Shown one piece after another: positions 2,597 to 59,660 of a DNA stretch of 64,000 bases (its first letter is position 1; the number at the start of each line of letters is the position of its first letter). A program made the position numbers and the translations under genes. This stretch comes from a bacterium (GTDB taxonomy: Bacteria; Patescibacteriota; Minisyncoccia; Phycocordibacterales; Zambryskibacteraceae). Where the stretch lies: assembly GCA_030650605.1 (NCBI GenBank), contig JAUSDP010000100.1, positions 16,383-80,382 of the forward strand, in the 5' to 3' direction. The notes under the pieces are model-generated. The model made no database searches. It was not told the origin of the DNA and worked only from the letters and a program-made list of their open reading frames with translations.

Positions 2597-3271
2597 ATGA
2601 CACCAGAAATGACGAAATCAAGAAACACGCGAACGCGCGTACAGGTGTCGCCAATGATCACTCGAGCTGGTTCCGAATCGATTCGGGATTACAAGTTCTT
2701 AGCATCGCATCCAGACGTGCATTGCAATTCGGTTAGTGAATTTTCAAATATCGTCATTCGAGAATTCATCGATGCCAAGCCGTGGATGCAAACGTCTTGG
2801 AAATGGCAGATATCTCGGGCGAGCGAACGGATGTCAGGGAATACTGGCTGCCCACAATTTAATTTCATGGTATCAAACGACATTGAATTCGCTGTAAAAA
2901 ACGTGACGTCACGATTAATCATTGAAGCCGAAAAGGCTGCATGGAAGCAGACACTCGGCAATGGGGAAATCTCTTTTAACGATATCGAGACGCGCGTGAA
3001 TGCTAAGCTGGTATTACTGCAATCGAAAAGCAATTGCTTGGACACTGAAATAGAAGCGACATCGTGGAAGTATGTGCGATTGCATGATGACACCGTTGAT
3101 GCCATCATGAACGTTACCAAGCGACGTGTCTCATCTCTTCTTTCGAGCCAACAAAAGAATGGCTATGTTTGCAAAAATATTAGTGGATTCCTGCTCAGTG
3201 CGATGACATGGGCAACTCGTGGCGACAGTAGATTTTCGAAAATACTTAAACAGAGCTTGCGACAACAATGA
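2597..3271 (+). CDS. Hypothetical protein, 224 aa, translationally coupled to the downstream HAD-like gene
   Basis: ORF overlaps the next gene by 4 nt (ATGA-type coupling). No recognisable domain. Confidence 0.4.
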   Translation: MTPEMTKSRNTRTRVQVSPMITRAGSESIRDYKFLASHPDVHCNSVSEFSNIVIREFIDAKPWMQTSWKWQISRASERMSGNTGCPQFNFMVSNDIEFAVKNVTSRLIIEAEKAAWKQTLGNGEISFNDIETRVNAKLVLLQSKSNCLDTEIEATSWKYVRLHDDTVDAIMNVTKRRVSSLLSSQQKNGYVCKNISGFLLSAMTWATRGDSRFSKILKQSLRQQ

Positions 3272-3714
3272 TTGTATTCCTTGATATTGATGGTGTGCTG
3301 CATCCGGATCCCTGCTATGACAGAGACCTGCTACTTTCATGCTTGCCGAAGTTTGAGTCCGTGATCCGTGAGTTCCCAGGAGTTGAAATCGTAATAAGTA
3401 GCACCTGGCGTGAGAAAAGATCACTCACAGAATTGAGGGATCTTTTCTCACCCGATATCGCGCAAAGAATTATAGGAGTGACGCCCAGCTGGAAGGATCA
3501 TCAGGGCATTTTTAATAGAATTGGCTACCAACGTCATGCCGAAGTCGAAGCATGGCTGCGTGGGTCCTCAGAGCCATGGCGACGATGGGTGGCAATTGAT
3601 GACAAGCCATATTTGTTTCGACCATTTTCAAATCTCGTAAAGACCAAATCTGAGGTTGGATTCGATGATTTAAGTGAAATCGCACTACGCGATAAGCTAT
3701 CTGAAGCTGATTAG
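3268..3714 (+). CDS. Small HAD-superfamily hydrolase (phosphatase/5'-nucleotidase-like), paralog of 8593..9012
   Basis: N-terminal MIVFLDIDGVLH matches HAD motif I (DxDGV). The downstream ISSTWRE segment is shared with the paralog 8593..9012 (MIIFLDFDGVLH ... VISSSWRE). Confidence 0.55.
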   Translation: MIVFLDIDGVLHPDPCYDRDLLLSCLPKFESVIREFPGVEIVISSTWREKRSLTELRDLFSPDIAQRIIGVTPSWKDHQGIFNRIGYQRHAEVEAWLRGSSEPWRRWVAIDDKPYLFRPFSNLVKTKSEVGFDDLSEIALRDKLSEAD

Positions 3715-8580: not shown

Positions 8581-8592
8581 GGCGAAAGTGAT

Positions 8593-40860: not shown

Positions 40861-40885
40861 AAAATTTATATAATTCTTAAAATTA

Positions 40886-44281: not shown

Positions 44282-45088
44282 CTATTCAATCTCCAAGACT
44301 TCAATTAAGCAAGCCCACTGAAATCCCGGATTCTCAAATTTAAGTTCTTTCGTCGATGCAGCATTGTTACGATTTCTGGCATATCCGAGGGGGTTCGCTA
44401 CAACCCGGCATCCATTTACGACATAATCAAAACTATCGTGCACATGCCCGTGCAGCCATAGGCTTGTTTTCCCTAATAGCTCTTCGAGATTCCCGCTAAC
44501 GAATGCGGCATTCAACGGTTCCCCGATATAGCGCGGGTGGACCGACGATGGGTGAGGTCCGTGATGGGTTACGACAACTGTCTTGCCGTCGTAAGGGGTA
44601 TTCAATTGGTTTAGCAGCCATGCTCGTGACTTATTATGTTCTCCTAGCGCGTGGGCTGGCATAAACACACCTCCGCGTGTTTTTATAATGCGATGGTCAT
44701 TTAGGCTTAGTTCTGCCACTTCCATTAACTGTCGTTGCGTCCTATTACATGGCAGTAGGTAGTCAGTCCACATCGTGCAGCCTAAGAACCTAACGCCGCC
44801 GAAATCCACTACAGAGTTATCCATAAATCGAACAGATGTGCCCTCAGCAGCGCGGTGGAGATCTTCGCGTAGCTTTTCGAACGAATACCCATAGAATTCA
44901 TGGTTGCCAGCTAAATACAGCACAGGCACCGGCCAGTCGTGGAACAACTCTATCGCCTCGGTGCCATTCGATATATCTCCAGCGAGCACGAGTGCGTCTG
45001 CGCCAGCTGCCGGCGAAATTAGCCGTGTTCCAGGAGAATCCCTCTGAAAAAACTCGAGATGTAAATCGGATGCAAGTTGAATTTTCAT
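44282..45088 (-). CDS. Calcineurin-like metallophosphoesterase, 268 aa (paralog 1 of 4)
   Basis: The five MPP motifs in order: SDLHLE, LAGDISNG, LAGNHEFYG, VVTHHGP and HGHVHDS. Confidence 0.7.
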   Translation of the reverse strand: MKIQLASDLHLEFFQRDSPGTRLISPAAGADALVLAGDISNGTEAIELFHDWPVPVLYLAGNHEFYGYSFEKLREDLHRAAEGTSVRFMDNSVVDFGGVRFLGCTMWTDYLLPCNRTQRQLMEVAELSLNDHRIIKTRGGVFMPAHALGEHNKSRAWLLNQLNTPYDGKTVVVTHHGPHPSSVHPRYIGEPLNAAFVSGNLEELLGKTSLWLHGHVHDSFDYVVNGCRVVANPLGYARNRNNAASTKELKFENPGFQWACLIEVLEIE

Positions 45089-45483
45089 GAGATCTCTTCC
45101 ACCAAAGGATTCAAAAAATTCTTCAAGATCTCAAGCCCCCGACATTGGTCATCAATAACAGCTTGATTCTGTTTTCTCAATCCCATTTTGTGAACAATCG
45201 AAAACAAAGGTCTGTATGTTAAATTAAAATTTTTGATCTCTTTTTCATTTCGCATACGCTCTAAAATTAATTTTTGGGCATCCACAAAATCATCTTGAAA
45301 TCGATTGGCCAGGACATCGATTTGCTCATACAAAGAAAGATTCTTGATACCAAAATCAGCCTTCATTTTGCCTGCAAGAGTTTTGATCTCTTCGTGGAGC
45401 TCCGTCAATTCAGAAATTCGGTTATGGATATCAGAATGAAATATGTGATCTGAATTTGAGTCTGAGGAAAGCTGATTAATCAT
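45085..45483 (-). CDS. Hypothetical protein, 132 aa
   Basis: Coupled (4-nt overlap) to the MPP gene downstream and to the 212-aa gene upstream. Confidence 0.35.
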   Translation of the reverse strand: MINQLSSDSNSDHIFHSDIHNRISELTELHEEIKTLAGKMKADFGIKNLSLYEQIDVLANRFQDDFVDAQKLILERMRNEKEIKNFNLTYRPLFSIVHKMGLRKQNQAVIDDQCRGLEILKNFLNPLVEEIS

Positions 45484-46118
45484 TTTGAGAGAGCGCTTTC
45501 AAATATCGATTTTTCTTCAGCTGTTAGTTCAATTAAATCATTATCTTCATCGGATGCCGGAAACTTAACATGATCCATTTTGATTGAGATCGCAGAGAGC
45601 ATCTCGGCTAGCAATCTAAGATCCAAATCTGAGATATACATCTCATATTTTTCTCTGTCGTCGAGTACAAATAGGTGTGCTACATAAATGCCTGCGCTGT
45701 TATAAATCTCGACTTCAATAGCGGCATCTTCGATGAGATCAAGTAATTTATTCCGTACTCCTTCCGAAAAATGATGTGGGCATAGGGGTGAGAGATACCC
45801 ACCGATTTGAGCCGGGGAACCGCGGGATCCGCAAGCCGTGCAAGTAAAAGCCGAACGCCTGATGGCGTCGTTAATCAGATCTTCTATTATTGGGAGCCTG
45901 GTTGCTCCGAAACGAAGTCTTCCAAACTTTTCTTTAATTTGGGTAACTGAGAATTTGGCATCAGTTTCCGCTAGGGCTACCTCAATTTTTGAGCAAAGCT
46001 CATCCAAAAGATTCCCCCAACCTGTTGGAATACAGCTGCCATACAGCTCCTGGTTCCTAATGGATTGTTTAGTAAAACATCGGGGGTGTTTTTTAATGAT
46101 TTCTTCAAATGTGATCAT
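45480..46118 (-). CDS. Hypothetical Cys-rich protein, 212 aa
   Basis: Contains CTACGSRGSP and CPHH motifs suggestive of a metal-binding site. Confidence 0.35.
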   Translation of the reverse strand: MITFEEIIKKHPRCFTKQSIRNQELYGSCIPTGWGNLLDELCSKIEVALAETDAKFSVTQIKEKFGRLRFGATRLPIIEDLINDAIRRSAFTCTACGSRGSPAQIGGYLSPLCPHHFSEGVRNKLLDLIEDAAIEVEIYNSAGIYVAHLFVLDDREKYEMYISDLDLRLLAEMLSAISIKMDHVKFPASDEDNDLIELTAEEKSIFESALSK

Positions 46119-46373
46119 GATTAGTCCAGTTAGATTACTTTCTTAATAAAGCATATTAAAGCAATTTTTTGAGCGAAAACATTGACATCTTCTGTATTTC
46201 AGAGCCGAAAAGCATATGAGATATTCGATAAGCTATAACGCATTCAAATTTATTCAAATAGCAATCCTTCTATCTCATCGCCAAAATTATTTTCAAGAAT
46301 GCTAAAAATCAATATGCGCAAATGAATCATGTGATATATTATATACATATAGTATATAAAAAGGGATTCACAA

Positions 46374-47207
46374 ATGAAAAAATTAACTCAACTGGTAGCC
46401 GGCATCTCACTAATCCTCGCGGCTTCATCTGCATTTTCCCAGGAATACACAGAAGAATGGCGCGTGCTCGGACCAGCATTTTCCAAACACATGAGCAAGT
46501 CTGGAGCGCTCATTACACATAGAGCGTCGAACTACGATTGCAGGATTGGTTCCTGGATGCCTCCAGGTCAAACGGCTTCCGATCTAGAAAAGTTGGGAAT
46601 TCCATCCCAAGTTTGTTCGCTCACTTCGCACGACATGCAATCAGAGCATGACGCGGGCAGATTAGATTGGAAATGTGATTTCTTTGTGAAAGAAATCGGC
46701 ATAGCTTCTTGTAAATTCACAAAGATTGAGGACGTGCCGACTTGGTCCCAAAACAACCCAGCACTTGGTCTGCAATATAGCCGGCGTTATGGCACCCACA
46801 CTGACCAGGTGTTCGGCACTTTCGTCAAGGACTCCTACGGCACGTCCAGCTTCATGGCTGGAGCAGGGCGCCTTTGGCCAGTGGCATCTATCTCGACGTT
46901 TTCAGTTGATGCTGGCATCATTGGTGGCGCCTGGTATCGCAGTGTGCTCAACATCGAGAAGAACACACTATCAAATCGTTTGGTGCCATATGTTTTGCCG
47001 GCGTTGTCGATTACTGAATCCAGAACTGGGCTAGGTATCAATGTCGCATTCGCACCCAAAACTAGATATAAGGGGAAACATGTTGTTCCGACGAATACGT
47101 TTATGTTTCAGACAACATATTTGATAACAAGTAAGAAACATGCGACCTTGTTAAGTGTAGACGTGGGAACAGAAAAACTTGGGGCTTCAGTTAGTACGAG
47201 TTTTTGA
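46374..47207 (+). CDS. Putative outer-membrane beta-barrel protein, 277 aa
   Basis: Signal peptide (MKKLTQLVAGISLILAASSAFSQE), alternating amphipathic strands, and a C-terminal aromatic residue (SVSTSF) typical of OMPs. Confidence 0.4.
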   Translation: MKKLTQLVAGISLILAASSAFSQEYTEEWRVLGPAFSKHMSKSGALITHRASNYDCRIGSWMPPGQTASDLEKLGIPSQVCSLTSHDMQSEHDAGRLDWKCDFFVKEIGIASCKFTKIEDVPTWSQNNPALGLQYSRRYGTHTDQVFGTFVKDSYGTSSFMAGAGRLWPVASISTFSVDAGIIGGAWYRSVLNIEKNTLSNRLVPYVLPALSITESRTGLGINVAFAPKTRYKGKHVVPTNTFMFQTTYLITSKKHATLLSVDVGTEKLGASVSTSF

Positions 47208-47387
47208 AAATGTGGTACCTGTAAGGTCTCACCTTGATTCAGTTTTTCGAAATTATCAAATAACCGTCAGATAGCATAAATACGATACGAAACACTGTAT
47301 GGGCTGATGGATTTACCTGTGTCGCTTAGTATATTATTGAAATCCCAGATGGGACTTCGCTTACCAAAACACTAGGCTCCAATCACA

Positions 47388-48377
47388 ATGCTATCGCTAC
47401 CTGCTGCCTTTCTTGCTGAATTTGGAACTCCAATGGCACCGCCTTCAGCGGATCAGATAATCAGTGGAAGTGATGAGGAGATCACATTCGTACTACTTGA
47501 GCGGTGCCAAGCTTTAGTTATAAAAGCTTTAAGTGATAGCCGATATAAAGACATTCGAGTCAACGCGATATGCTTACCAAAATTTGAACCTCGGGTATTC
47601 ACTTATTGGAGGCAAGACGATCCCAATAACTATGTAATCTCATGCAACATTGGTACCGCAGCGCTCATTCGACGAATCCTGGTCGACGCGAATTTTCATG
47701 AGCTGCTCCCGAATAGCTGCGTCCTACTGCGCACGCTGCATCCCGATGATGTTTTGACCATTGCAATCTCACTGATACTTTGCACACTTCTCTACCACGA
47801 GCTGGCACACGTTGTTCGTTTTCACCTGCCCTATAAGATCTCATGTGCTGGTGAAATGAATCGAAATATGGAAGAGATAAAAGGTATGTGTGAGGTCGAT
47901 GCTGATAAGTGGTGTTCATATTTAATTGCACCAGAGATTTCATCTCAAGCAGCAGGAATTAAATGTGCAATAGCGAACGTTTTAAATATGGAACAGGAGC
48001 ATATTCTCAGAGAAGTATTGTCGTTGTATGGTCTGGTGCTTCACTTGTGGTTTAGCTTTTTTAACAAAACGATGTTCCGCATATCCTCCTTCTATCCACA
48101 TCCCCTCATAAGATCAACCAGAATTGCTGTTGGGGCCGCAGACAACATTGATCGCAAATTAATTGCTCCGCACCTCGCCATAGAGCGGGCCGCATTTGTA
48201 TTAGAGGAATTAGCAAGCATAGAGGAGTTACTACTATCGAAAGCGGGTATCGATCAGAAACCATTTGATCTGGCAGATGAAATGAGTGCGATTGAAACCC
48301 GCTTCGATGAGGTTTCACGAGTACTTGATCCTGAACTCGCAGAAATGGTTCTAAAATGGAGTAAGAGTTCTGTCTAA
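47388..48377 (+). CDS. Hypothetical protein with an HExxH motif (possible ImmA/IrrE-like zinc metallopeptidase)
   Basis: LLYHELAHVV contains HExxH. No other support. Confidence 0.3.
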   Translation: MLSLPAAFLAEFGTPMAPPSADQIISGSDEEITFVLLERCQALVIKALSDSRYKDIRVNAICLPKFEPRVFTYWRQDDPNNYVISCNIGTAALIRRILVDANFHELLPNSCVLLRTLHPDDVLTIAISLILCTLLYHELAHVVRFHLPYKISCAGEMNRNMEEIKGMCEVDADKWCSYLIAPEISSQAAGIKCAIANVLNMEQEHILREVLSLYGLVLHLWFSFFNKTMFRISSFYPHPLIRSTRIAVGAADNIDRKLIAPHLAIERAAFVLEELASIEELLLSKAGIDQKPFDLADEMSAIETRFDEVSRVLDPELAEMVLKWSKSSV

Positions 48378-48378
48378 A

Positions 48379-48729
48379 TTAAGTTGAATCGTGCACCGCA
48401 CCTTCAGCAATCGCCAGTGCGAACCCCCTTTCAATACTTCTTATTATGCGTTCTAGCTTAACTACCCGTTCTGCATCAATATCGCCGTTTTTTTGTAGTT
48501 GCTGCATTTGTGCTCGAACAAAGCCAATACCATCAACCGCGGCCGATTCGAGTATTGCATAGAAGCGCCCTTGTAGAAGCGCGTTACGCAACAGCACATC
48601 TTCTTTTGCATGGGGATTCATAGAGGCTAAGCCAAATCGCGGATGAGCCAATGCTGCAATGCTTGTCGTTGCGTTTTCAGTTGCGCCCGAGGGATGGACA
48701 TTAAGTGATTTGACGTCGATATTGGACAT
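48379..48729 (-). CDS. Hypothetical protein, 116 aa
   Basis: ORF only. Confidence 0.3.
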   Translation of the reverse strand: MSNIDVKSLNVHPSGATENATTSIAALAHPRFGLASMNPHAKEDVLLRNALLQGRFYAILESAAVDGIGFVRAQMQQLQKNGDIDAERVVKLERIIRSIERGFALAIAEGAVHDST

Positions 48730-49059
48730 GATGCATTGTCTGAAATATGCAGCGATTTGTCCAGAAAGTACTTGGACAAATCGATTTCGAGGAATTTATT
48801 AGACCAAAATTTTCCAATCTAATTAAAATTGCCACATATTTTGTGGCTAATTTCAATTGGCTTCCACAAACCTTTAACTACGTTTCCGAACTCGACTTTC
48901 GATGAGATTCAGCTTCACGACCAAATGAATGGCCAACTTACAAAACTCTTCCGGTTCAAAACCGACTGATTCGGCCGCAGCTGTCATTGAACCGAAATCA
49001 GTAGGGTGACACTCAAGAAATAAGGGAACCGATTGTGGCGGTGTTGGCAATGTCATAAA

Positions 49060-49467
49060 TCACTCTCTGGGAATCAAATCTATAATTTTTGCGGCCACGT
49101 TTTTCTGAACTCGGACAGACAGATAGTCGCAATTACTGGAAATTTCTATTGCGGGGTCATTCAGCGCTGTTCTAAGATCCGTCATTTTGTTTACTGATGC
49201 CTCGCATATGTTTCTGTATTCTTTTCGAAGGCTTCGGATAAGTGCTACATCGTCACCGTCATCGACATTAGTTATGACCGCATTTCCCAACATTTTCCCT
49301 GGAACCAAATCAGCTAGGATTTTGGAATTCTCTGCTTCACCCGCTGGCAAACGAATCACAACGGATACATATTTTTCAGATCCAGGATTGATGTTGGCCG
49401 CGCTCGAAAAATTTGGTGACATCAACAAAGTTGATAGCAAAAATAACATACATGGATTCTTAAACAT
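49060..49467 (-). CDS. Secreted hypothetical protein, 135 aa
   Basis: Signal peptide MFKNPCMLFLLSTLLMSPNFSSAAN. Confidence 0.35.
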   Translation of the reverse strand: MFKNPCMLFLLSTLLMSPNFSSAANINPGSEKYVSVVIRLPAGEAENSKILADLVPGKMLGNAVITNVDDGDDVALIRSLRKEYRNICEASVNKMTDLRTALNDPAIEISSNCDYLSVRVQKNVAAKIIDLIPRE

Positions 49468-49497
49468 TTGAAGCTCCTAATAATTACTTCGTTAAAA

Positions 49498-49836
49498 TTA
49501 AAGTGAGGCCGCGATAGAAATTGCAAGTAATGCAAGGAAAATTGCAGCAATTTTGATACCAAAAAGAACTGAAATCAGAACGACACCGGCCAGGATACAA
49601 ATGGTCTTTGGAAAAGCTTTTACGACGTCGAAACAAATGTGAGCAATCGGACGCACTATTTCTAGCGCTAGGTTCTGCAAGTTTCGAGACGTCCCGATCA
49701 TGAGAACAAAAAACAAAGTGGCAATCTGGACTGAGGGACCGAAAAATAAAGATGTGAGTGCGAAGCCCATCAAGAGGGGGATCACGTAAGGGAAATCCAG
49801 TGCAATGTCGAATGTGGATGGTCTTTTGTTTTTCAT
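49498..49836 (-). CDS. Small integral membrane protein, 112 aa
   Basis: Three hydrophobic helices. Confidence 0.35.
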   Translation of the reverse strand: MKNKRPSTFDIALDFPYVIPLLMGFALTSLFFGPSVQIATLFFVLMIGTSRNLQNLALEIVRPIAHICFDVVKAFPKTICILAGVVLISVLFGIKIAAIFLALLAISIAASL

Positions 49837-50037
49837 TTTAAATCTCCAAGTTGTTTGTCAGTAACTACAGTATAGTATAAGTTATTAATTAAGTATAGTA
49901 TAAAAACATAATAATATACATTGTTGTTGTTTGGCTTCAATAATATATTTCAGCTCCGAAAATAGCGTCCGTAAACGTCAATGTTGTGTTGTCAGGAAGC
50001 TTTTTACTATATAGACTATTAATTACTTAGTTTATAA

Positions 50038-51051
50038 ATGAAATCTATGCCACACCACACTTTTCAAATGAATCCCTTACGCGCTGCGCGCAAAGCACGG
50101 AATCTGACACTTCAATATGTTGCGGACATAATGCGCATCCGCGGACATAGGTATCCCCTAAGCGAAATCTGCAATCTAGAAAAACACACGGATACTAATG
50201 CTGAAACCAAATTTAAGATTGCTGAAATCATCGAGGCAATAGAGTCCAGCTCAAATATCAAAATGATTTCATCGGATTTCGATAACTTAAAACTCACAAA
50301 AGAGAACCTAAGAAGATTGCGACAGCATTTGGGATTCACGACAAATGAGGTTGCTCAAGTTTGCAGAGCGGTTGGGATTCGTGACGGAAAAGGTCTCTCA
50401 AATATCAGTTACGTTTTGTACGAGACCGGAAAACTGACCCCGAATCCTGAGGTGTGGGATCTTTTAAATTCATTTCTTTCGGAGCCGAAACCAGTGGCGA
50501 AACTATATAAAATGTTAGACAAAGATATCCCTGAAAATCGCCGTGGACCCAAGTCAAGCATAGGCCCAGTTAGTCTTCGTATAGTGGAAAACGTTGTCGA
50601 TCTTGATGGCACATTTGCGACGCTGATGGGACTCGGCAACATCGCAAGAATCCAAAAAGACGATTTGTACTCAATTTTTGGAAGCGTGAACTTAGGGGAA
50701 CTGGATGCAAAGAAGGATTTGAATTCAGGCCTTTCGAGACTCGATGACTTGGTAGTCCTGAGAGCTAAGAAAATAGAAGAGATCGCGGGAATGCTTCCGT
50801 CGCCAGCATCTTTAAAAGAGATCCGCGGATGGCACAAGATCACTCAAAGCGAGTTGGGCGACAAGATTTTGGCCGATGATCTCCCGAATTTAAATGCGGA
50901 CTACATTTCGCGTTTCGAGAACAATGCCGCCAAGTTTTCAGAGGAAACTTGGAGTCAAATTTTGAAAACATTAAAAAAGTTTGCACAAAAAATTGATGAT
51001 GATTACAACCAGTCTAGGTTGTCTGTGAAAGAAAAATATGGCAACAAATAA
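50038..51051 (+). CDS. Protein with three XRE-like helix-turn-helix repeats, 337 aa
   Basis: HTH-like segments LRAARKARNLTLQYVADIM, LRRLRQHLGFTTNEVAQVC and LKEIRGWHKITQSELGDKI. Confidence 0.4.
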   Translation: MKSMPHHTFQMNPLRAARKARNLTLQYVADIMRIRGHRYPLSEICNLEKHTDTNAETKFKIAEIIEAIESSSNIKMISSDFDNLKLTKENLRRLRQHLGFTTNEVAQVCRAVGIRDGKGLSNISYVLYETGKLTPNPEVWDLLNSFLSEPKPVAKLYKMLDKDIPENRRGPKSSIGPVSLRIVENVVDLDGTFATLMGLGNIARIQKDDLYSIFGSVNLGELDAKKDLNSGLSRLDDLVVLRAKKIEEIAGMLPSPASLKEIRGWHKITQSELGDKILADDLPNLNADYISRFENNAAKFSEETWSQILKTLKKFAQKIDDDYNQSRLSVKEKYGNK

Positions 51052-51399
51052 TAATAAATTTAATCCGAAATCGTTCAGTGTCCGATTGGAGAATGTTTTC
51101 AGGTTTATTCGCGAGAGACCAAAAACGGCTTTAGTTCTCTTCGTTCTGTTGTGTGCGGTTCCCTTGATTTTAATTTTTGGGTCCTCGCATCAAACAAAAG
51201 TGGAGCCTAAGAAATCTGGCCTTGGGGGCATGTATGAGCGGGCAGCGGAAACGATTGATCAGAAAAATCAATAAGGTCGGTAGATTTAGAATATTAGTTG
51301 TTGTCCATCGCAGATGCATTGATTTTCATTACACACGCGGTCTAACAATTCTAAAAATAGTGCAATAATAGTTCATACAAAGTGCATAGAGGAGCAGAT

Positions 51400-51816
51400 A
51401 TGGCTACAGCAGAAATAGCCGTCCCAGCCGGTGAGACAGTTCCTGTATTTGATCGAAATTTTGATGGGTTCATGAATTTCCTCAATTCGGAGGCGAGCCC
51501 GTCGATTTCCCCAAAACAATTCGGACTTGTTTTCAGGATTGATATGCAGACCCTCGCAGCGCAGGCACACGTTCACATGAACACCGTCAGGCTGGCACCG
51601 AACACCGAGACCATCCAGTCGCACCTGCGTGAATCGGTGCGCGTGATACGCGCTGCCGCCGATATTTCTGGCAGCATCGAAAAGGCGATTTACTGGTTCA
51701 AGAATCATCCGCTGCCGACTTTCGATTATAAGATGCCGCAGGACCTCGTTGCAGAAAAGCGCACCGAAGCACTCATCAAGTATATCCAGTCGCTCCAGGC
51801 CGGTTACACCGGATGA
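51400..51816 (+). CDS. ParS/MbcA/Xre-like antitoxin (DUF2384 C-terminal domain), apparently orphaned
   Basis: C-terminal SIEKAIYWFKNHPLPTFDYKMPQDLVAEKRTEALIKYIQSLQAGY matches the DUF2384 toxin-neutralising domain pattern. No intact RES toxin gene follows. Confidence 0.45.
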   Translation: MATAEIAVPAGETVPVFDRNFDGFMNFLNSEASPSISPKQFGLVFRIDMQTLAAQAHVHMNTVRLAPNTETIQSHLRESVRVIRAAADISGSIEKAIYWFKNHPLPTFDYKMPQDLVAEKRTEALIKYIQSLQAGYTG

Positions 51817-52322
51817 TTTTGGGTCTAAAACTAAACGACTAGGGTCTAAAACTAAACGATTCAAATTCTAATTCCCCCAAATTCGAGGGAATTAGAAATG
51901 AGGTTGGGCGAAACAGTTTCTTTATATCAGCCAAGAAATGGATAGGCGCGACCGATGCTATTGGTTTGCATGCCAAGACAGGGAGCTACGGCGGCTCTTA
52001 CGCCCATAAAGATGTCGCACAGCCGTGGTGTATGCCAGGGCGAGGACGACTTGCTCAATTCCACTGTTGCCATTCCAAATCAGGGTCTAAAACTAATACA
52101 AAACAGACTATTATTAGTGATTCACACATCCAGTATTCGCTTACTTATTATTCAACTTTTCAGCTTGGTATAAATCATATTGCAATCCCCGCAGCGCCAG
52201 TAACGACACGTTGAAGTGTAACGCGGCCTACACCAAGACGTATTGGCTGTATTATGAACTATGATCGAAGCACAATTACCCCGATGGCTTATCTAGTAAC
52301 CTCAGGGCGTTATCTAGTAACC

Positions 52323-52634
52323 TCAGATGCCTGAGGGATCATTGCTCAAAGCAAGAAGTTCGCCAACCATCAAATCAATTTGTGTTTGCGGAAGAGATGG
52401 GAACGGTAAATTGGTCCGTCCAAGTAAATCCAGTAATTGCCCGTGATATCTAAGTCGAAGCGAATCCATTGCTTCGACTGAGCTGATTTCAGCATTTGAA
52501 TATTGAACGAGAGTGTTGATCGTGTGTTTGTCGCCGGCAATCAAATTTACGACCGCTTTGCGCATGCCAGTCGGATGCGATTTCCATATTTTGTAAACTC
52601 TATATTTAGCTTTTCGATTTTTCATCTTCGGCAT
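52323..52634 (-). CDS. Hypothetical small protein (possible toxin-like partner of 52606..53112); start uncertain
   Basis: ORF 52323..52703 trimmed to the internal ATG at 52634. It overlaps the upstream gene by about 29 nt. Confidence 0.25.
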   Translation of the reverse strand: MPKMKNRKAKYRVYKIWKSHPTGMRKAVVNLIAGDKHTINTLVQYSNAEISSVEAMDSLRLRYHGQLLDLLGRTNLPFPSLPQTQIDLMVGELLALSNDPSGI

Positions 52635-53112
52635 CCAGTGCACTGTGCATCTGCGCAGAGATTGTAAGCGGCGCATCAAAATCAGCAGCAATAGAAATAG
52701 CACCCTTCAGCGAGCCAGCTCGTCTCGTTGGTTTTTTTTCATTTTGAGCGATAATTTTAAGTTTTTGAACAATAACATTGTTGCTCTCCGCTTTTAAGGC
52801 AACAGCTTCCGGAACTGGAAATCCCAAGTCCAGAAAAACATTTCCACCAACAGGCGTAACGATAGAGGATTGCACTGACGCTGCAAAATCTGATTCCTCC
52901 AAAGCAGGCTTCTTTAACGCCTCTGCCATCTTTTCGAGTACAGAACTGAGTCCATCAATTCCTTCATTGGAAAAAACGCTGACGGGATTTTCGGTATAGC
53001 CGTTTGGATGCCCATCTTTGTCATAGTAAACTTCATGAATCTGATGATAGGGTTCTCCATCTTCGTCGATGAATTTCATCACGCGGTAGTTCCAAGTCAT
53101 TGGCTTTTTCAA
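52606..53112 (-). CDS. Hypothetical protein with C-terminal AbrB/MazE-like antitoxin-type motif
   Basis: The C-terminal RRAGSLKGAISIAADFDAPL resembles the conserved swapped-hairpin (...GKIWIADDFDAPL) segment of some type II antitoxins. N-terminal domain unknown. Confidence 0.3.
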   Translation of the reverse strand: MKKPMTWNYRVMKFIDEDGEPYHQIHEVYYDKDGHPNGYTENPVSVFSNEGIDGLSSVLEKMAEALKKPALEESDFAASVQSSIVTPVGGNVFLDLGFPVPEAVALKAESNNVIVQKLKIIAQNEKKPTRRAGSLKGAISIAADFDAPLTISAQMHSALDAEDEKSKS

Positions 53113-53114
53113 GT

Positions 53115-53921
53115 TTAAATTTCTATTATAAAATTAGGATCGAAATCAACGTTTTCCCCTTGTCCACTCGATAAATGATACCCGCGCGGATTGCATACAA
53201 CCCTGCAAGAACCGATTTCATAATCGGATGACGTATGCATATGGCCGTGCATCCAAAGATCCGCCTGCGATGCCAATTCATCCAAATTGGACGCATAGGC
53301 GGCCGAGATAATGTCCGCTAAAAACCGTTCTGGAACCGATAGCATTGACGGTGCCATGTGCGTAACGACTACCGTCTTGCCGGCGAATGGTTCCGCGAGC
53401 TTGTCTCGAATCCAATTGCGCTGCTCTGCATGAAAACGTGCGGTATCTGGCGTCCTCATTTTTTTGTATCCACGACTCTCCAGGCGGATACGGTGGTAGT
53501 CGTTCATACCATTCTCGGCTTCATACATCGCGGCTTGTCTTTTATCGGCGCCAAACAAATTGAAGTCTGTCCAGAGCGTCGCGCCTAGGAACCGTACATC
53601 GCCTAGGCGCCATTCTTTGGAATTCAAAAATTGGACATTCTCAGTAAGCTGGCAGGCATCTTCAATATCTCTTTGTGCTTGCTCCAGCTTGTGTCCATAG
53701 CCTTCGTGGTTACCATGCACGTACAGCACCGGAATCCCAGAAAACGTCTGTGTTGCCCAAGGAATTGCTTTGGCGCCAGTATGAATGTCGCCAGCCAGGA
53801 TCACCACATCGGGCCGACTCAAATTGATATCGACCTGCAGTGCGGTTTTTCCCCAATGCTCCAGATGGAGATCCGATAGAACTAAGAGTCTCAATTCAGT
53901 GCTCTCCTGGGCGCCATGCAT
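53115..53921 (-). CDS. Calcineurin-like metallophosphoesterase, 268 aa (paralog 2 of 4)
   Basis: SDLHLE, LAGDIHTG, VHGNHEGYG, VVTHMAP and HGHMHTS. Confidence 0.7.
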   Translation of the reverse strand: MHGAQESTELRLLVLSDLHLEHWGKTALQVDINLSRPDVVILAGDIHTGAKAIPWATQTFSGIPVLYVHGNHEGYGHKLEQAQRDIEDACQLTENVQFLNSKEWRLGDVRFLGATLWTDFNLFGADKRQAAMYEAENGMNDYHRIRLESRGYKKMRTPDTARFHAEQRNWIRDKLAEPFAGKTVVVTHMAPSMLSVPERFLADIISAAYASNLDELASQADLWMHGHMHTSSDYEIGSCRVVCNPRGYHLSSGQGENVDFDPNFIIEI

Positions 53922-54076
53922 TCAAGTGCCATCTGCAAAGCTTTTACGATTTCTGGCTGAGTTGGTGAATACCCGTCCTGGCGTTGGACACTAATAGTCA
54001 CAGTTTCGGGATCACTGATCATGGTTTCGCGCTGCTTGCCGACGGCAATAATTTCGATTTTTAAGGTCATTATTAT

Positions 54077-54427
54077 TTACTTTTTAAGTTGCATCGATAT
54101 CGTAAAATTTGGAGAGCCTGGCTTGCTTAACCAAGAGCCCATGCGCACGATTTTTGTTTCGAAAACCAATCCTGATAACTCGATTTCAAGTTCGTAGCGG
54201 GTGTTTTGCGATGGTGAAATGGTGTTATCGGAACGGTTATCCGCAATACATATATTTTCTGTTTCCTCAATGGTCTGCACAAACGTAAGTAACAAAGCAG
54301 AGTCGAAATGATTATTCAATTTTGCTTTAACTTTTCTGTTTTCTCGATCTATGACGTATTCGACGAATAGATCTGGGATTTGGAGCCCAATGTGTTTAAA
54401 GTAAATTCGATTCCCATTCATACTCAT
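54077..54427 (-). CDS. Hypothetical protein, 116 aa, last gene of the MPP-exonuclease operon
   Basis: 4-nt overlap with the exonuclease gene upstream. Confidence 0.35.
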   Translation of the reverse strand: MSMNGNRIYFKHIGLQIPDLFVEYVIDRENRKVKAKLNNHFDSALLLTFVQTIEETENICIADNRSDNTISPSQNTRYELEIELSGLVFETKIVRMGSWLSKPGSPNFTISMQLKK

Positions 54428-54933
54428 AATTCGTCCGCGCCTTTTTTTAATAGTTGTGCAAGCAGTGTTTCAGAATCGCGCGGGCGATAAGCAAACCTAT
54501 TCGCTCTGGCATCTGACAGCGCATGGTGTTGGACCTCTGAAGGATTTTTTTTAAAATATTCGTACAAGAGCAATTCATTAAAATCTGATCCACAAAGTCT
54601 CGGCTTCACCCAACTCGGAATCCGGTATTGAATCACCTGAGAAAACAGATCCCAATCTGCTGTGTAATCAAAACAGACTATGATGTCTTCATCTTTTCTT
54701 CTTATAATTTCAAGCCATGTCTGAATCCTCCGCGGCATTTCACTGAGTGAACAAAAGGCGTTTGGTTCTCGCCCCAAGTATGGGATCACCGCCTCTCTCA
54801 CAAATGCAGTGCATTTATTGTCCGGGTACGGAACTTCGGCATAAAACTCTTCACCTGTGTCCGCGACCATGCCAATGCTGATAAGGATCGGATCCAATAG
54901 GTCGGTGAATTCAGTATCAATGAATACGTTCAT
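54424..54933 (-). CDS. DEDDh-family 3'-5' exonuclease (DnaQ/RNase T-like), 169 aa
   Basis: Exo I FIDTEFTD, Exo II CFDYTADWDLF and Exo III HHALSDARAN (H-x4-D). Confidence 0.6.
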   Translation of the reverse strand: MNVFIDTEFTDLLDPILISIGMVADTGEEFYAEVPYPDNKCTAFVREAVIPYLGREPNAFCSLSEMPRRIQTWLEIIRRKDEDIIVCFDYTADWDLFSQVIQYRIPSWVKPRLCGSDFNELLLYEYFKKNPSEVQHHALSDARANRFAYRPRDSETLLAQLLKKGADEL

Positions 54934-55682
54934 TTGGAAACCATCTTTTCTCTATGTTGTTGACGTTGTGCATCCTGTTCACCAGGCCTTATGATTTCGA
55001 TTTCCCATGTCTCGGTATCCAAAGACGTGATGCCTCGCAGACCCACGCCATAGGGCCGGAATCCTTCCTGCGCTGGATACTTTAAGCTGTCGTGTTGATG
55101 GCCGTGGAATGATTTTAGAAGCCGTTGGTTGCCGATACCTAAGTTGCGGGCGAGGTCACTGATCAAATCGGATCCATACGGATGGGCCCCTGGCGCGTCG
55201 TGCGTAATCAGGACATCCGCGCGTTCACCAATCAGGCCGAAATACTCATTTGGGAAAATGGTACTGCGATGTTTAAGCGGCAGCCCACCACGCCAATGAT
55301 TACCTTTTCCACATTTCTTAAGGTATTCGGCCGGTGATTCGAATTCAGGATTGTCCTGGGGCATCCATACCTTCGATCTGAATACTCCTCCGAGTCCAGC
55401 AATACGGATTCCGGCGATTTCGACAACGCGTGAATGTAGATTTCTATCTGAAAGTTTTGAGTGGAATAGGTTGTCGTAATCTGACTCAGAGTCCGTGTCG
55501 TGATTTCCAGGGATCCACCAGATTTCAGTTAGTGAGATGATCTCGACTAGTTCAATTTCTAGCGATCGCAGCGCCTGTTGATCACCCAATAAAATGACAG
55601 CTGCCGGCCTGTGGTCTCTCACAGCTTTGATGATGTGATTAAAGTGGCCGTGAGGATCGCCACAGAAAAAGATTGTGCCCAT
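54930..55682 (-). CDS. Calcineurin-like metallophosphoesterase, 250 aa (paralog 3 of 4)
   Basis: CGDPHGH, LLGDQ, IPGNHD, LITHDAP and HGHQHDS. Confidence 0.65.
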   Translation of the reverse strand: MGTIFFCGDPHGHFNHIIKAVRDHRPAAVILLGDQQALRSLEIELVEIISLTEIWWIPGNHDTDSESDYDNLFHSKLSDRNLHSRVVEIAGIRIAGLGGVFRSKVWMPQDNPEFESPAEYLKKCGKGNHWRGGLPLKHRSTIFPNEYFGLIGERADVLITHDAPGAHPYGSDLISDLARNLGIGNQRLLKSFHGHQHDSLKYPAQEGFRPYGVGLRGITSLDTETWEIEIIRPGEQDAQRQQHREKMVSK

Positions 55683-57280
55683 TAGAAGTCGTTGTCCCAG
55701 GTTCGAAGAAATTTCTTCGGGATGACATCGTCTCGTTTCGATTCAGCTTTCAAAAGTCTTTTCATCGATGCCAAATTTTTGGATTTGAAGAAGACAAGTC
55801 TCGATAGTATAAATTCTCTGAACTCGATTTTAAACTTGACGGCATCAGAGATTGATCCCAGAACTTCAGGATCCAGTTCCTCTTCAAAATCTGCATTTTC
55901 AAAATCTTCATATCTCCAGTAGTCATATATTTGGAACCTAAAATTTCCTTCAATATCTTTGGTATTTTCGGTTACTTCAGAATCAAAGGAGTTGACCAGG
56001 CGATCGAACTCGGTGAATTTTTCGCGAAGCTTGTCCGCAATCGTTGCAACGATTTCTGGATCATTGTTATCACAGTGTTTTGAAAGCGATTTGCATTTGT
56101 TTAAGATAGCGATTAACTGGGGTTCAAGAGATTCAATTGATCCACGAATGACGGGCGAAATACCCTCGTTTACATCTATAACAAAGTAAGGGTCGAACTC
56201 CTGGTTCTCCCCCAAATATGGGCTCAGTTCATGAGCTGCTTTGGATCGTAGAACATCGGCCTCGGTATAGCCAATACCAAATAAATTCATTGCTGCCGCA
56301 CTCTCGAGAGTGAGTGGATGAGTGTACCGACCGCGTGGATTACAGCATACTCTGATACCCTGTTCGATGTAATCCAAGCTGTCATGCAGGTGCGCACAGA
56401 GCCATGCTGTCACCATTTTTTTATGGCTTTGCTTATGCTTAGCATTAAATGAAAACGGAAAATTATTAAGATCCAGATTGCTTGCATATGCTGCGACTTT
56501 GTACATGTTATTTTCGGCCGGGCGCTTCCAGTGTGCTTCGAAGTGTTTGCTTTCGATAATTGTTTTTTCGCTTACTTCACCAGACAGCAATAAAGACTTC
56601 CAGAACGGATGATGGTGCGTGACGATTACATTTTTGATTCCGGGTTGAATTTTTACAGGGTCCCCCCATGCGTCAGTATGAATAAATTTTCGTAAAAATT
56701 TCATGGATCGACGATGGAGTACAAGCCCTACAATTGGGTTCCATCCTTTTGATTCAACAATTTGATAGCGAATCTCTTGTTGTCGAGTTAAATCGATGCG
56801 GGCATGCTCAAAATATTTTTTGAGTAATCGATCGAACTCGGCAAGCAAATCTTCATCTTCGAAGAATTCCCCGCAATGGATACAGGAATCATTCATGAAT
56901 TTTGCTTCGTCGACCAAACCGCTATTTATGGACGCTCCAGTGCTACCCAAATTCGTCCACAAGGTGCATCCTATAAATCTTACATCCCCAATAACGACTG
57001 ATTCGTTTTCTAAAAAATGTACGTTTGATCCCTCTGCAGATTTTTTGATGTCTCGGGCTATCTGGAACATGTCTACTGGGTTGTCACGAGTACTCCAAAA
57101 TTCATGATTTCCAGCGGTATATATGATTGGGACATCTGTTTTGAGCGTCTTCAACCACTCGACGCCTTTCGTGCCATTTGAGATATCACCCGCTGCGACG
57201 ATAACATCGCAATCTAAATCTGTTGGGATTTCATACGGGCCAGATTCTAAATGGAGGTCGCTAAGTAAGTGGATTCTCAT
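55682..57280 (-). CDS. Calcineurin-like metallophosphoesterase with about 250-aa C-terminal extension (paralog 4 of 4)
   Basis: The ATG at 57280 gives MRIHLLSDLHLE at the N-terminus, followed by AAGDISNG, TAGNHEFWS, VIVTHHHP and CAHLHDS. The longer upstream ORF start is less likely. The stop abuts the next MPP gene. Confidence 0.6.
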   Translation of the reverse strand: MRIHLLSDLHLESGPYEIPTDLDCDVIVAAGDISNGTKGVEWLKTLKTDVPIIYTAGNHEFWSTRDNPVDMFQIARDIKKSAEGSNVHFLENESVVIGDVRFIGCTLWTNLGSTGASINSGLVDEAKFMNDSCIHCGEFFEDEDLLAEFDRLLKKYFEHARIDLTRQQEIRYQIVESKGWNPIVGLVLHRRSMKFLRKFIHTDAWGDPVKIQPGIKNVIVTHHHPFWKSLLLSGEVSEKTIIESKHFEAHWKRPAENNMYKVAAYASNLDLNNFPFSFNAKHKQSHKKMVTAWLCAHLHDSLDYIEQGIRVCCNPRGRYTHPLTLESAAAMNLFGIGYTEADVLRSKAAHELSPYLGENQEFDPYFVIDVNEGISPVIRGSIESLEPQLIAILNKCKSLSKHCDNNDPEIVATIADKLREKFTEFDRLVNSFDSEVTENTKDIEGNFRFQIYDYWRYEDFENADFEEELDPEVLGSISDAVKFKIEFREFILSRLVFFKSKNLASMKRLLKAESKRDDVIPKKFLRTWDNDF

Positions 57281-57857
57281 GATCAATATCGATAATTCTG
57301 GAAGCAATTTTAAGTGGAATTTCAACTTATCATAGATTTCATCGGGAATTATCGATTCTAGTGTTGGAGATATCTGCAACACTATTTGAACGAAGATTTC
57401 GTTGGATTATTTAAATGGATTTAGCTTCAAGGAGGACTTGATCTCGAAATTTTTGAGGTAGATCGGCTGGCGTCTTGATGTCGACAGGAACACCTAAAAT
57501 CTCTTCGAGCTCTTCCATAGCGGCCCAGTCGCTGAGAATTGTTGGTCAGATGGCCCCATTGGAAAGGGGTGGAGCACTCCGTCAAAGTCCAAAAAAAATA
57601 ATCATGTAATTCTTAACGTTCTATCTGCTGAATCTGAAGATGCTGCTCATGCCAACCTTTCAATCTCAATCACGATTGGATTCTTCATGTGGAAACGGCC
57701 CACCAAAGCGGGCCGTCTGTATATCGATTGTCTCCAGGGGGAGGCTTTCACCCACGAAACCCAGAGCTAACGAATGAATAATACAATGAAACATTGTCTT
57801 TTGTTTTTCTATTTGTGCAGCAAGCCTCTGCACAAATTAGCAGATGGTGTGACAACT

Positions 57858-59084
57858 CTATTTCAGATGACCCAACAACGCATTTGCAAGCACGGAATTA
57901 AGGCTCCATTTGCGCTCATGCTCGCTAAGTATTGTATGCGGCGCCAGGGCGTGAATGATCTCTTCAATACGTCCCTTTGAAACGCGTATTTTGGCGCCGG
58001 CAACAACGATCTCAACACTATCATCGATCGCTATTTGAGGCTTGAGCGGAACCGGAGCAGATGCGATCGTATTTGTTTTGGCACTGAGTAAAAATTCAGT
58101 CGGATCCGGGGCTACAAATTTTCCAACACGATTTTTGAATGGACTCAGAGATTCGAATGCCTTTCCGCGATCAAAATTTGGATCTCTAATGCTCTCTGTC
58201 AGATGTCTAATATCTGAGTTCGCCGTCGTTGCAGATGGAGCCTGAATTAAACGTGACGTCACGGAATTTGATAACGGACTATCAGCAATGCTTTTGCTTG
58301 TATCCCGATCGTGTTTCAGCTTGTTTAGTGTGCCCAGCTCCATCGAGCGTGATGCCAAAATCTTTTGAGCACTAAGATCGTCGGCATAGGATACATAGAG
58401 CTTTATTTTTTTGAGATCTGTTTCTGTGTACCTGGTGCCAGTTAAATTGAATTCATCCAAAAGAATATTTTTGTGCGCGTCACTTAGGCTCCGAAATTGG
58501 GAGAGCACGTGTGGGCTGTTTCCGCAGGCCGCTAAAAATGCCCGATTTTTTGGATCGCTCAGCATCAGTATTTTCGAAATCGTTGCCTCTGATTTCCCGC
58601 TCAGTTTGGCGATTTCTTTACGGTCCACATTGGCATCAGATAGCTTTTGAATGGTGTCCGCGACGTCTGAGTCAGCTAGATCCTTCCGATGAATGTTCTC
58701 GACTAACTGGGCGATCTGTCTTTCAGTCTTGTCGTCACAAAGCTTCTTTGAAGCTATCACTGCAGGAATTGTTTTGAGTCCAGCAAGGCCGGAAGCGGTG
58801 AATCGACGTTCCCCGAAAACTATCATCCATTTAATTATTGGGCTCGATGGATCTGTGAAAGGCCTCACGGTAATTGCCTGGAGAACCCCGTTTGAGCGGA
58901 TTGAATCCACCATTTCTGAAAGCGGGTCCTTGTCGTCGGACCCATACTTTAGGCTCGCTGTCCTGAGTTTAGTTTCAGTCTCAACATCCGAATGGGGGCG
59001 CGGGTTCTCTGGGTCTACTATGATTTCCCCAAGCGGGATTTCGAGAACCGTTTTTTGATCTTCTTGCTTCATTTTTCGTTCCAT
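57858..59084 (-). CDS. ParB/KorB-like protein (second ParB-family gene), 408 aa
   Basis: ParB N-domain GVLQAITVRP ... IVFGERRFTASGLAGLKTIPAVI and VENIHRKDL. The C-terminal half is unrelated to the parB at 38379. Confidence 0.55.
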   Translation of the reverse strand: MERKMKQEDQKTVLEIPLGEIIVDPENPRPHSDVETETKLRTASLKYGSDDKDPLSEMVDSIRSNGVLQAITVRPFTDPSSPIIKWMIVFGERRFTASGLAGLKTIPAVIASKKLCDDKTERQIAQLVENIHRKDLADSDVADTIQKLSDANVDRKEIAKLSGKSEATISKILMLSDPKNRAFLAACGNSPHVLSQFRSLSDAHKNILLDEFNLTGTRYTETDLKKIKLYVSYADDLSAQKILASRSMELGTLNKLKHDRDTSKSIADSPLSNSVTSRLIQAPSATTANSDIRHLTESIRDPNFDRGKAFESLSPFKNRVGKFVAPDPTEFLLSAKTNTIASAPVPLKPQIAIDDSVEIVVAGAKIRVSKGRIEEIIHALAPHTILSEHERKWSLNSVLANALLGHLK

Positions 59085-59094
59085 TTTTATTGTT

Positions 59095-59559: not shown

Positions 59560-59660
59560 TTTTTGAATTCTAATTTTAGTGTGTGGAGATAGTTGTGTAC
59601 CTTAAACACTATTATATTAGATTTTAATAAATTATTAAGTTTTCATAGCATCTATTTTTT

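Follow-up and report, generated by a model that had tools for sequence, protein, structure and literature searches.

The window analysed here is a stretch of 64,000 nucleotides (nt) of contig JAUSDP010000100.1 (assembly GCA_030650605.1, positions 16,383 to 80,382). The locus in question, at positions 44,282 to 57,280 of this window, carries four genes of calcineurin-like metallophosphoesterases (MPP) and one gene of a DEDDh 3'-5' exonuclease, which are referred to in this analysis as MPP_A, MPP_B, MPP_C, MPP_D and EXO, a small neighbour being named U116. The region exemplifies a modular hydrolase array which is borne by mobile elements and the modules of which recur in shuffled order. These modules are an A/B/D-type MPP, a C-type MPP, an Rv2179c-like exonuclease, a 'Swiss-army-knife' HAD phosphatase and cREC. 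The window contains three A/B/D-type MPPs, the C-type MPP and the exonuclease, and four of these five genes are found in a block of eight co-directional genes on the minus strand, running from 57280 to 52323.

The first gene of the block encodes MPP_D (55682..57280), a long-form A/B/D-type MPP of 532 amino acids (aa) (PF00149, 6.7e-6; phrog_1649, 2.5e-30). It shares one base with MPP_C (54930..55682; PF00149, 6.3e-8), a 250-aa MPP which belongs to a different family and has a motif I of GDPHG type. MPP_C overlaps by 4 nt with EXO (54424..54933; phrog_2259, 7e-20), a predicted 169-aa DEDDh 3'-5' exo(ribo)nuclease of the Rv2179c/RNase AS-like group, and EXO by another 4 nt with U116 (54077..54427), a 116-aa protein without any match in Pfam, NCBIfam, PADLOC or PHROG and with homologues in no more than 6 of the first 94 loci retrieved. 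A 59-aa open reading frame (ORF) at 53891..54070, which was gene-called on the source contig as well as in the sister plasmids L011 and L012, bridges U116 and MPP_B and overlaps the start of the latter by 31 nt. MPP_B (53115..53921), of A/B/D type and 268 aa long (PF00149, 1e-12; phrog_1649, 1.8e-50), is the sixth gene. It is directly followed by an ORF of 168 aa (52606..53112; 157 aa from the start at 53079), with a match to phrog_21321 of unknown function (1.5e-13), a weak match to DUF2281 below the cut-off, and homologues in 7 of the 94 loci. The final ORF (52323..52703) measures 126 aa from a GTG codon or 100 aa in the source annotation (52323-52625) and found no family match in the PHROG search. 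Overlaps throughout the block range from 1 to 31 nt and gaps are at most 35 nt, a spacing which suggests a single transcription unit.

The original prediction, made from the letters alone, had given the four MPP genes at 44282-45088, 53115-53921, 54930-55682 and 55682-57280. These limits are exact, and all four genes are on the minus strand. The contiguity of MPP_D and MPP_C and the 4-nt overlaps down to the 116-aa gene, also noted at that time, agree with the ORF list. What had been described as a four-gene operon is, according to the ORF list and the source gene calls, a block of eight genes which includes MPP_B; three of the four MPPs therefore belong to one array. The fourth, MPP_A (44282..45088; 268 aa, A/B/D type; PF00149, 2.7e-10; phrog_1649, 1.5e-46), is the last gene of a separate three-gene block on the minus strand (46118 to 44282). 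The two genes upstream of it (45085..46118) encode proteins of 212 aa (45480-46118) and 132 aa (45085-45483), for which no Pfam or PHROG family was obtained save one sub-threshold, chance-level match; the three genes overlap successively by 4 nt. Between the two MPP-containing blocks, a 337-aa protein encoded on the plus strand (50038-51051) is matched weakly by Xre-type HTH families at several places along the chain.

The replicon, a single contig of approximately 81 kb, is plasmid-like, as had been proposed: it encodes two Rep3 initiators, ParA and ParB, a second ParB_N protein and a TrwC/TraI relaxase. The eight-gene block adjoins its Rep3/ParB module. The sister plasmids, whose proteins are 84-91% identical, retain the order Rep3, small ORF, ParB, MPP_D, MPP_C, exonuclease, small ORFs, MPP_B. 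The spacer of 475 nt between ParB and MPP_D holds a pseudogene on the minus strand (57411..57601), in which a HAD_SAK_2 gene breaks off after ~30 codons and continues, in another frame, with the final 34 codons of an NTP_transf_2 (MNT-like) gene. An intact pair (PF18143 and PF01909) occupies the same position (3395-4183) in the sister contig L003, the DNA of which aligns with the window on either side of a gap of ~590 bp at the remnant. Tblastn with the intact proteins recovered the HAD part at E = 6e-20 and the MNT part with 33 of 34 residues identical. Judged from these alignments, the remnant is the relic of a deletion and records the ancestry of the array.

Enzyme families of the array

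All four MPPs match PF00149 (Metallophos) above the gathering score and display the five motifs of this superfamily, and the models of MPP_B and MPP_C have the MPP fold. The motif series read beforehand from the sequence (DxH, GD, GNHE, H, GH) was recovered as D-x-H / G-D / G-N-H-[ED] / H / (G)H-x-H, invariant in the family alignments of each type. The residues concerned are D17, H19, G44-D45, G70-N71-H72-E73, H188, G226-H227 and H229 in MPP_B; G8-D9, H11, G33-D34, G59-N60-H61-D62, H161, G194-H195 and H197 in MPP_C; and D8, H10, G31-D32, G57-N58-H59-E60, H222, H297 and H299 in MPP_D. In motif V of the MPP_D in the window the glycine is replaced by alanine (CAHLH), with both histidines retained. 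In EXO, residues D6, E8, D89, D93, H136 and D141 are invariant across 25 homologues, which bears out its earlier designation as a DEDDh exonuclease. From this conservation, the four MPPs and the exonuclease are very probably active enzymes.

The four MPPs had been taken for paralogs. This holds for three of them, since BLASTP identity is 39% between MPP_A and MPP_B and 27-28% between these two and MPP_D, while MPP_C gave no significant similarity to any of the three (E > 0.04). Similarly, phrog_1649 is matched strongly by MPP_A, MPP_B and MPP_D (1e-30 to 1e-50) and only at 2e-8 by MPP_C. The locus therefore contains three paralogs and one member of another MPP family. More than 7700 homologues were counted for MPP_B and at least 1533 for MPP_C, the latter being ~55-60% identical across Beta- and Gammaproteobacteria; database names for the homologues do not go beyond 'metallophosphoesterase' or 'predicted phosphodiesterase'.

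MPP_A, MPP_B and MPP_D carry a helical insert of their own. The start of MPP_D was set at the ATG at 57280, because the homologues start at the same MRIHLLSDLHLE. A C-terminal extension of roughly 250 aa had been attributed to this protein. The family alignment shows instead an MPP domain from residue 1 to ~375 with four insertions (~110 aa) and a C-terminal tail of ~155 aa, for which no match was obtained in Pfam or the PDB. The long-form subfamily counts 82 cluster representatives at E < 1e-30, mostly of 500-620 aa. An identity with the A1 protein of phage T5, considered for its similar length and N-terminal MPP domain, was rejected, as no T5-like phage was among the tblastn hits listed.

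Searches of the PDB with single sequences and with profiles retrieved no close solved relative of MPP_C, of MPP_B or of the MPP_D tail. The AF2 model of MPP_B (pLDDT 92) found its best fold match in PptH (6unc, TM 0.65), followed by Rv0805 (E = 6e-8), MPPED2 (TM 0.57), purple acid phosphatases, Dbr1 and GpdQ; Mre11 and SbcD appear at ranks 11 and 38, below the phosphodiesterases. As modelled, the A/B fold is closest to small-substrate phosphodiesterases such as PptH, the cNMP phosphodiesterase Rv0805, MPPED2 and GpdQ. The model of MPP_C (pLDDT 89) gave only generic Foldseek matches in the PDB and BFVD (TM 0.4-0.55), with YmdB-like 1t71, 5'-nucleotidases, MJ0936, SapH, Mre11 and lambda phosphatase at TM 0.33-0.49 and nothing specific in BFVD; no subfamily is assignable from these two collections. 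The scores also place the MPPs outside four named families: the 3',5'-cAMP phosphodiesterases CpdA/Icc (NF008359; 26 bits for MPP_A and 16 for MPP_D against a cut-off of 225, over partial stretches), YfcE (TIGR00040; 21 bits against 56), PdeM (TIGR04123; 15 bits against 150) and acc_ester (TIGR03729; at most 49 bits against 148).

EXO is a small single-domain protein with the motif set of the Rv2179c-like DEDDh enzymes (PF16473), namely D-x-E in Exo I, D in Exo II and H-x4-D in Exo III. The single sequence scored 23.7 bits in Pfam, under the cut-off of 27. With the profile of the family, Rv2179c was the nearest solved relative in the PDB (E = 1.6e-7), over the N-terminal half only. The RNase AS equivalog (NF033638) was scored at 34.3 bits against 200, so that EXO stands outside it. 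The family numbers 317 detected homologues, of which the named ones are nearly all from Oxalobacteraceae, and it occurs in multiple copies within single genomes.

Recurrence on mobile elements

A sample of 80 genome loci anchored on the exonuclease was examined, with up to 8 kb of flank on each side. In 15 of them an MPP of the present families was detected, the nearest MPP always being at most 930 nt from the exonuclease gene; the predicted linkage thus recurs independently of this plasmid. The order and orientation of the genes vary (divergent, tandem or overlapping), and a single inherited operon therefore does not account for the linkage. Among the neighbour families of the exonuclease, the A/B-type MPPs rank first (13 loci). 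Further neighbours are a second exonuclease of RNase_T type (9 loci), cREC_REC, a Rec protein of the 'cyclic-phosphate processing' kind (5 loci), transposases of Tn3 and Mu/Tn7 type, and integrases. In locus L057, cREC_REC adjoins both an MPP_B-type gene and the exonuclease, and in Herbaspirillum an exonuclease and MPP_B pair is located immediately beside a Tn7-like TnsA/TnsB/TniB module.

Of 80 metagenome loci retrieved with MPP_C as the anchor, nine contain the exonuclease and five a HAD gene resembling HAD_SAK_2. MPP_C adjoins HAD_SAK_2 genes in Comamonas pZM22-2 and in a Variovorax plasmid, comes directly after an A/B-type MPP in a Sphaerotilus plasmid, and in locus L006 precedes another MPP gene and a tandem row of four HAD_SAK_2 genes.

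An array locus was defined by the presence, close together, of at least two of four module types (A/B/D-type MPP, C-type MPP, exonuclease, HAD_SAK_2-like HAD). Pooling gave 32 such loci, mostly on one strand, from Burkholderiales genomes and environmental metagenomes. The carriers are plasmids, Tn7-like and Tn3 transposition neighbourhoods and integrase islands, with relaxases, LPD7 proteins, toxin-antitoxin pairs, Wadjet and AbiE nearby. Pfam analysis of 150 neighbours returned mainly Xre-type HTH, integrases, LPD7, relaxases, RepB and transposases. Several MPPs in one array, which had seemed unusual on a single plasmid, recur elsewhere (L078, L162, L187). The array is thus not peculiar to one plasmid.

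The HAD_SAK_2 and cREC partners bring into play a first alternative, the healing of RNA 3' ends. Where ribotoxins leave 2',3'-cyclic phosphates or 3'-phosphates, the MPPs, HAD and cREC proteins would restore a 3'-OH, the exonuclease would trim damaged or aberrantly extended 3' ends (e.g. of tRNA CCA), and nucleotidyltransferases and ligases of the host or of a partner would finish the work, shielding the translation of the element's host from RNase-type effectors of defence systems or toxins. Both families are defined by predicted roles in RNA repair or in the processing of cyclic phosphates (PMC7824862). Binuclear MPPs are proven to act on such ends, as the phosphoesterase domain of CthPnkp and lambda phosphatase hydrolyse 2',3'-cyclic phosphates and 3'-phosphates (PMC2190708). 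The NTP_transf_2 and HAD_SAK_2 pair directly upstream of MPP_D in L003, with its remnant in the window, the AbiEii-type nucleotidyltransferase toxins near MPP_C homologues and an RtcB RNA ligase 2 kb downstream of an A/B-type MPP in phage contigs (L109, L110, L112; ~6001-10011) fit the same scheme. However, the array has no RNA ligase or polynucleotide kinase domain and thus does not belong to the canonical RNA repair systems (Pnkp/Hen1, RtcAB, T4 Pnk and Rnl); the 25 Pfam families met most often in the 150 neighbours likewise include neither an RNA ligase nor a kinase. The RtcB link is limited to one phage lineage, and RtcB works without prior end-healing. Moreover, no MPP of the window is close to the CthPnkp/lambda phosphatase subfamily, the match of 1g5b to MPP_C being at E = 9e-4 with a TM of 0.33. 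RNA healing is considered rather unlikely.

A different setting was observed for MPP_C homologues (47-50% identity) on metagenome contigs of the human gut, where they occupy a conserved chromosomal position behind an HTH-WYL-WCX regulator. The original prediction had stated that chromosomal orthologs in conserved contexts would speak for housekeeping phosphatases; such contexts were found for MPP_C homologues. The regulator directly precedes the MPP_C homologue in 29 metagenome loci (L211 6799-7854 and 28 more). Since 27 of these share one chromosomal context, they count as roughly one observation, and a general partnership of MPP_C with the WYL regulator is retained as no more than a lead. 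FtsK, LolA and MoeA were read by eye among the neighbours in these gut loci.

The ssDNA-sensing damage regulators PafBC and DriD have this HTH-WYL-WCX architecture. Such regulators speak for a second alternative, in which the MPPs would be 3'-phosphodiesterases or nucleases that process blocked ends of DNA, with the DEDDh enzyme as a DNA exonuclease, for the maintenance or repair of the plasmid or for an attack on the DNA of the host or of competitors. The faint similarity of MPP_C to PdeM, the presence of Mre11/SbcD and viral recombination endonucleases among the distant Foldseek matches and the position of the array beside ParB/Rep3 go in the same direction, as does a mycobacteriophage metallophosphoesterase which damages host DNA and thereby evades defence (PMC12287305). 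On the other side, the WYL-linked loci amount to about one observation, PdeM reaches a tenth of its cut-off, the best folds of the A/B type are small-molecule phosphodiesterases, and the closest solved relative of the exonuclease is an exoribonuclease. No SbcC/Rad50-type ATPase gene was found in the array or beside any of the four MPP genes, which sets it apart from SbcCD/Mre11-Rad50. With this partner missing and with folds ranking below PptH, Rv0805 and MPPED2, the Mre11/SbcD-like reading initially proposed was abandoned, and a role on DNA ends in general appears quite unlikely.

Homologues of the A/B type, at 24-44% identity, are also carried by jumbo and other large phages, where the gene is solitary among genes of nucleotide metabolism (ribonucleotide reductase, ThyX, NAD-ligase). 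This setting would suit ordinary accessory metabolism, in which nucleotidase or phosphodiesterase genes for the salvage of nucleotides or phosphate hitch-hike on mobile DNA. The plain database names and the conserved chromosomal context of MPP_C in gut contigs are also in line with salvage. Such a role is very doubtful, however, as the genes are multi-copy and at variable, element-borne sites, are repeatedly and tightly linked to the exonuclease, HAD_SAK_2 and cREC rather than to transporters or Pho-regulon genes, and are kept beside the replication/partition module in the sister plasmids.

MPP_C homologues occur in defence islands next to BrxR-type WYL regulators, Wadjet, GmrSD, AbiE and restriction-modification genes. 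On the contigs of the homologue from Azospira sp. I09, MPP_C is located between a BrxR-type WYL regulator with Wadjet and GmrSD. The array could be a defence module given to the host by the plasmid, directed at the nucleic acids of phages or depleting nucleotides once a cell is infected. Three unrelated elements (L006 6127-8124, L215 10676-12523, L216 15531-16940), in which a classical AAA+ ATPase (PF00004) is encoded upstream of the MPPs, would fit such a module; the N-terminal ~250-400 aa of these ATPases have no Pfam match. In PADLOC-DB v2, all four MPPs partially match the single-gene candidate PDC-S10, while EXO and U116 are without hit. These matches are restricted to the N-terminal metal-binding half (E = 4e-10 to 1e-3, positions ~4-119 of 223), PDC-S10 is itself a candidate, and the array is thus outside the catalogued anti-phage systems. 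Furthermore, the array of the window has no sensor or regulator, and the A/B family is carried by large phages of lytic type, which fits a function in the service of the invader better than one against it. A defence module is accordingly regarded as improbable.

Proposed function and plasmid setting

The reading that is favoured here is counter-defence in the service of the element. The MPPs, together with HAD and cREC where these are present, would hydrolyse cyclic phosphodiesters, 2',3'-cyclic phosphates or 3'-phosphates, i.e. phosphates that would otherwise block a 3' end or close the ring of an oligonucleotide. Their removal would expose a 3'-OH, which DEDDh exonucleases require, and the exonuclease would then degrade the 3'-OH oligonucleotide to mononucleotides. 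Several MPP paralogs may serve to cover different linkages or bases. In this manner the array could erase nucleotide immune signals (cyclic mono- and oligonucleotides or products ending in a cyclic phosphate) or clear the RNA fragments left by host RNases, a reading to which we give a probability of about 0.4. Calcineurin-like, SAK-HAD, 2H and cREC enzymes of phages have been predicted by the Aravind group to clean up cyclic phosphates or to counter nucleotide signals (PMC7824862, PMC9503650). The same group has argued that phosphoesterases without a ligase partner are more likely to degrade signals or RNA than to repair (PMC5512222); as the arrays have no ligase partner, this logic applies here. 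A more specific version is on the whole unlikely: an unnamed modular 'eraser' array in which diversified phosphodiesterases open the cyclic or branched messengers of CBASS, Pycsar, type III CRISPR and Thoeris, and a phosphatase and the exonuclease destroy the linear products, for broad-spectrum protection of plasmids and transposon-borne islands.

Several observations weigh against counter-defence. No MPP was detected within 8 kb in 65 of the 80 exonuclease loci, and the partnership is therefore facultative. The structural matches are remote, none exceeding a TM of 0.65 or an identity of 19%, and whether the substrates are RNA, DNA or free nucleotides can only be inferred. Scans of the array for consensus promoters and terminators were not above shuffled controls, so that the case for a single transcript is made by the spacing. 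The solitary MPP of large phages fits plain salvage equally well, and the WYL-linked MPP_C homologues suggest a damage- or infection-induced function on the side of the host. Finally, anti-defence genes of plasmids concentrate in the leading region (PMC11541004). The array (52-57 kb) is separated by ~30-40 kb from the relaxase gene (11881-15603), from which we infer the position of oriT, and is for that reason probably outside the leading region. The broader proposal made from the sequence, that the locus processes nucleotides or nucleic-acid ends in conflicts of mobile elements, is supported in its general form by the recurrent MPP-exonuclease linkage, the cREC and HAD_SAK_2 partners and the mobile contexts; its Mre11/SbcD variant is not.

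With regard to the plasmid itself, megablast of the segment 44-58 kb against plasmid and phage collections gave no match, and the replicon has been seen only in one contig from a metagenome-assembled genome (MAG)/Logan and in a few sister contigs. Its Rep3-type initiators are encoded at 40886-42094 on the plus strand and at 59661-60680 on the minus strand, within the regions 38379-42094 and 57858-60680, and only one of the two ParB_N proteins has a ParA partner (39362-40441). Two initiators and two ParB_N proteins with a single ParA suggest a two-replicon cointegrate or a fused plasmid. A tRNA scan of the window returned no genes.

At the left end of the window, a protein with the polyvalent-protein domain LPD7 (34-1116, plus strand) precedes a block of three genes (1978-2595, 2597-3271 and 3268-3714); LPD7 proteins were also seen near the hydrolase arrays of other loci. 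The last gene of this block (3268..3714, plus strand) encodes an intact HAD_SAK_2 phosphatase (PF18143, 1.1e-28), the enzyme type which partners these MPPs elsewhere, with homologues in 7 of the 94 loci. Next follows a tight block of three genes on the plus strand (4020-8580), the products of which measure 965 aa (without Pfam match), 149 aa and 405 aa (with a PNP_UDP_1 phosphorylase domain at the C-terminus); this block looks like a candidate defence operon with an effector of nucleoside-phosphorylase type. On the minus strand, the region 8593-10352 contains a HipA-family kinase toxin gene (9009-10352) and then a gene for a 139-aa protein, with homologues in 6 of the 94 loci. Further along, a co-directional block on the minus strand (27645-33734) encodes a restriction-modification fusion of the MmeI family with all five MmeI domains, a DEAD/ResIII helicase and a T5orf172/MUG113 protein. 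An Aca2/YdiL-like protein (PF08965, 1e-18) is encoded at 27116-27577 on the plus strand; regulators of this kind are often attached to anti-CRISPR or anti-defence loci.

Comparison with known systems

The superfamilies found here are already known, and parts of their association were anticipated in computational surveys of phages. In the literature searched, no description was found of MPP paralogs of two families combined with an Rv2179c-like exonuclease, with or without SAK-HAD and cREC, on plasmids or transposon-borne islands of Burkholderiales. The closest published sets, those of Iyer, Burroughs and Aravind (PMC7824862, PMC9503650, PMC5512222), have HAD_SAK_2, cREC_REC, calcineurin-like MPP and MNT-type nucleotidyltransferase in common with the present arrays and are likewise carried by mobile elements. 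These sets centre on RNA ligases, sirtuins or enzymes of NAD and ADP-ribose in phages, none of which was seen in the arrays. The passages searched in these papers do not mention the combination found here, in which an Rv2179c-like exonuclease accompanies several MPP paralogs on plasmids or on islands borne by transposons. Even if the array processes RNA or DNA ends, the linkage of MPP, exonuclease, HAD_SAK_2 and cREC offers a concrete and cheap set of proteins with which to test the long-standing computational predictions of cyclic-phosphate processing in genetic conflicts.

Taken individually, the enzymes resemble characterized ones to different degrees. PptH (Rv2795c), the class III enzymes Rv0805/CpdA, MPPED2 and GpdQ share the binuclear fold, act as phosphodiesterases on small substrates and provide the best matches of the MPP_B model. 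They differ by an identity of only 12-19%, by the helical insert of MPP_A, MPP_B and MPP_D and the large insertions and tail of MPP_D, and have no gene context in common with the arrays. The likeness to Rv0805 is at the level of the fold and does not amount to CpdA membership (26 bits against 225). CthPnkp and lambda phosphatase share with MPP_C the GDxHG form of motif I, besides the weak match of 1g5b; MPP_C has no kinase or ligase domain or partner, and no sequence match to them appeared in the PDB searches. SbcD/Mre11 are of the same superfamily, and here neither their partner gene nor a capping domain was detected. RNase AS/Rv2179c of M. tuberculosis (PF16473) has the size class and the DEDDh motif set of EXO. 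It differs in that the match covers the N-terminal half, and in that the EXO family, whose named members are nearly all from Oxalobacteraceae, is multi-copy and located on mobile elements.

With respect to counter-defence, mycobacteriophage A10ZJ24 gp48 is an MPP of an invader with a demonstrated counter-defence role, exerted through damage to host DNA (PMC12287305). No mycobacteriophage was among the matches listed for tblastn of MPP_D and MPP_C (E <= 1e-3), with 24 further MPP_D matches outside the listing.

Invader-encoded hydrolases of cyclic-nucleotide immune signals include Acb1 with a 2H fold, Apyc1 with a metallo-beta-lactamase fold and the viral ring nucleases with a DUF1874 fold. These folds are unrelated to the proteins of the array, without homology to them, and the resemblance is a conjecture about function. 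To our knowledge, the erasers of nucleotide signals described so far are almost entirely phage-derived single enzymes. If the proposed function is true, it would account for very large families (MPP_B has more than 7700 homologues, MPP_C at least 1500) which are at present named by their metallophosphoesterase domain only, and the array would represent a plasmid- or transposon-borne, multi-enzyme, combinatorial signal eraser, built from folds unlike those of the known erasers.

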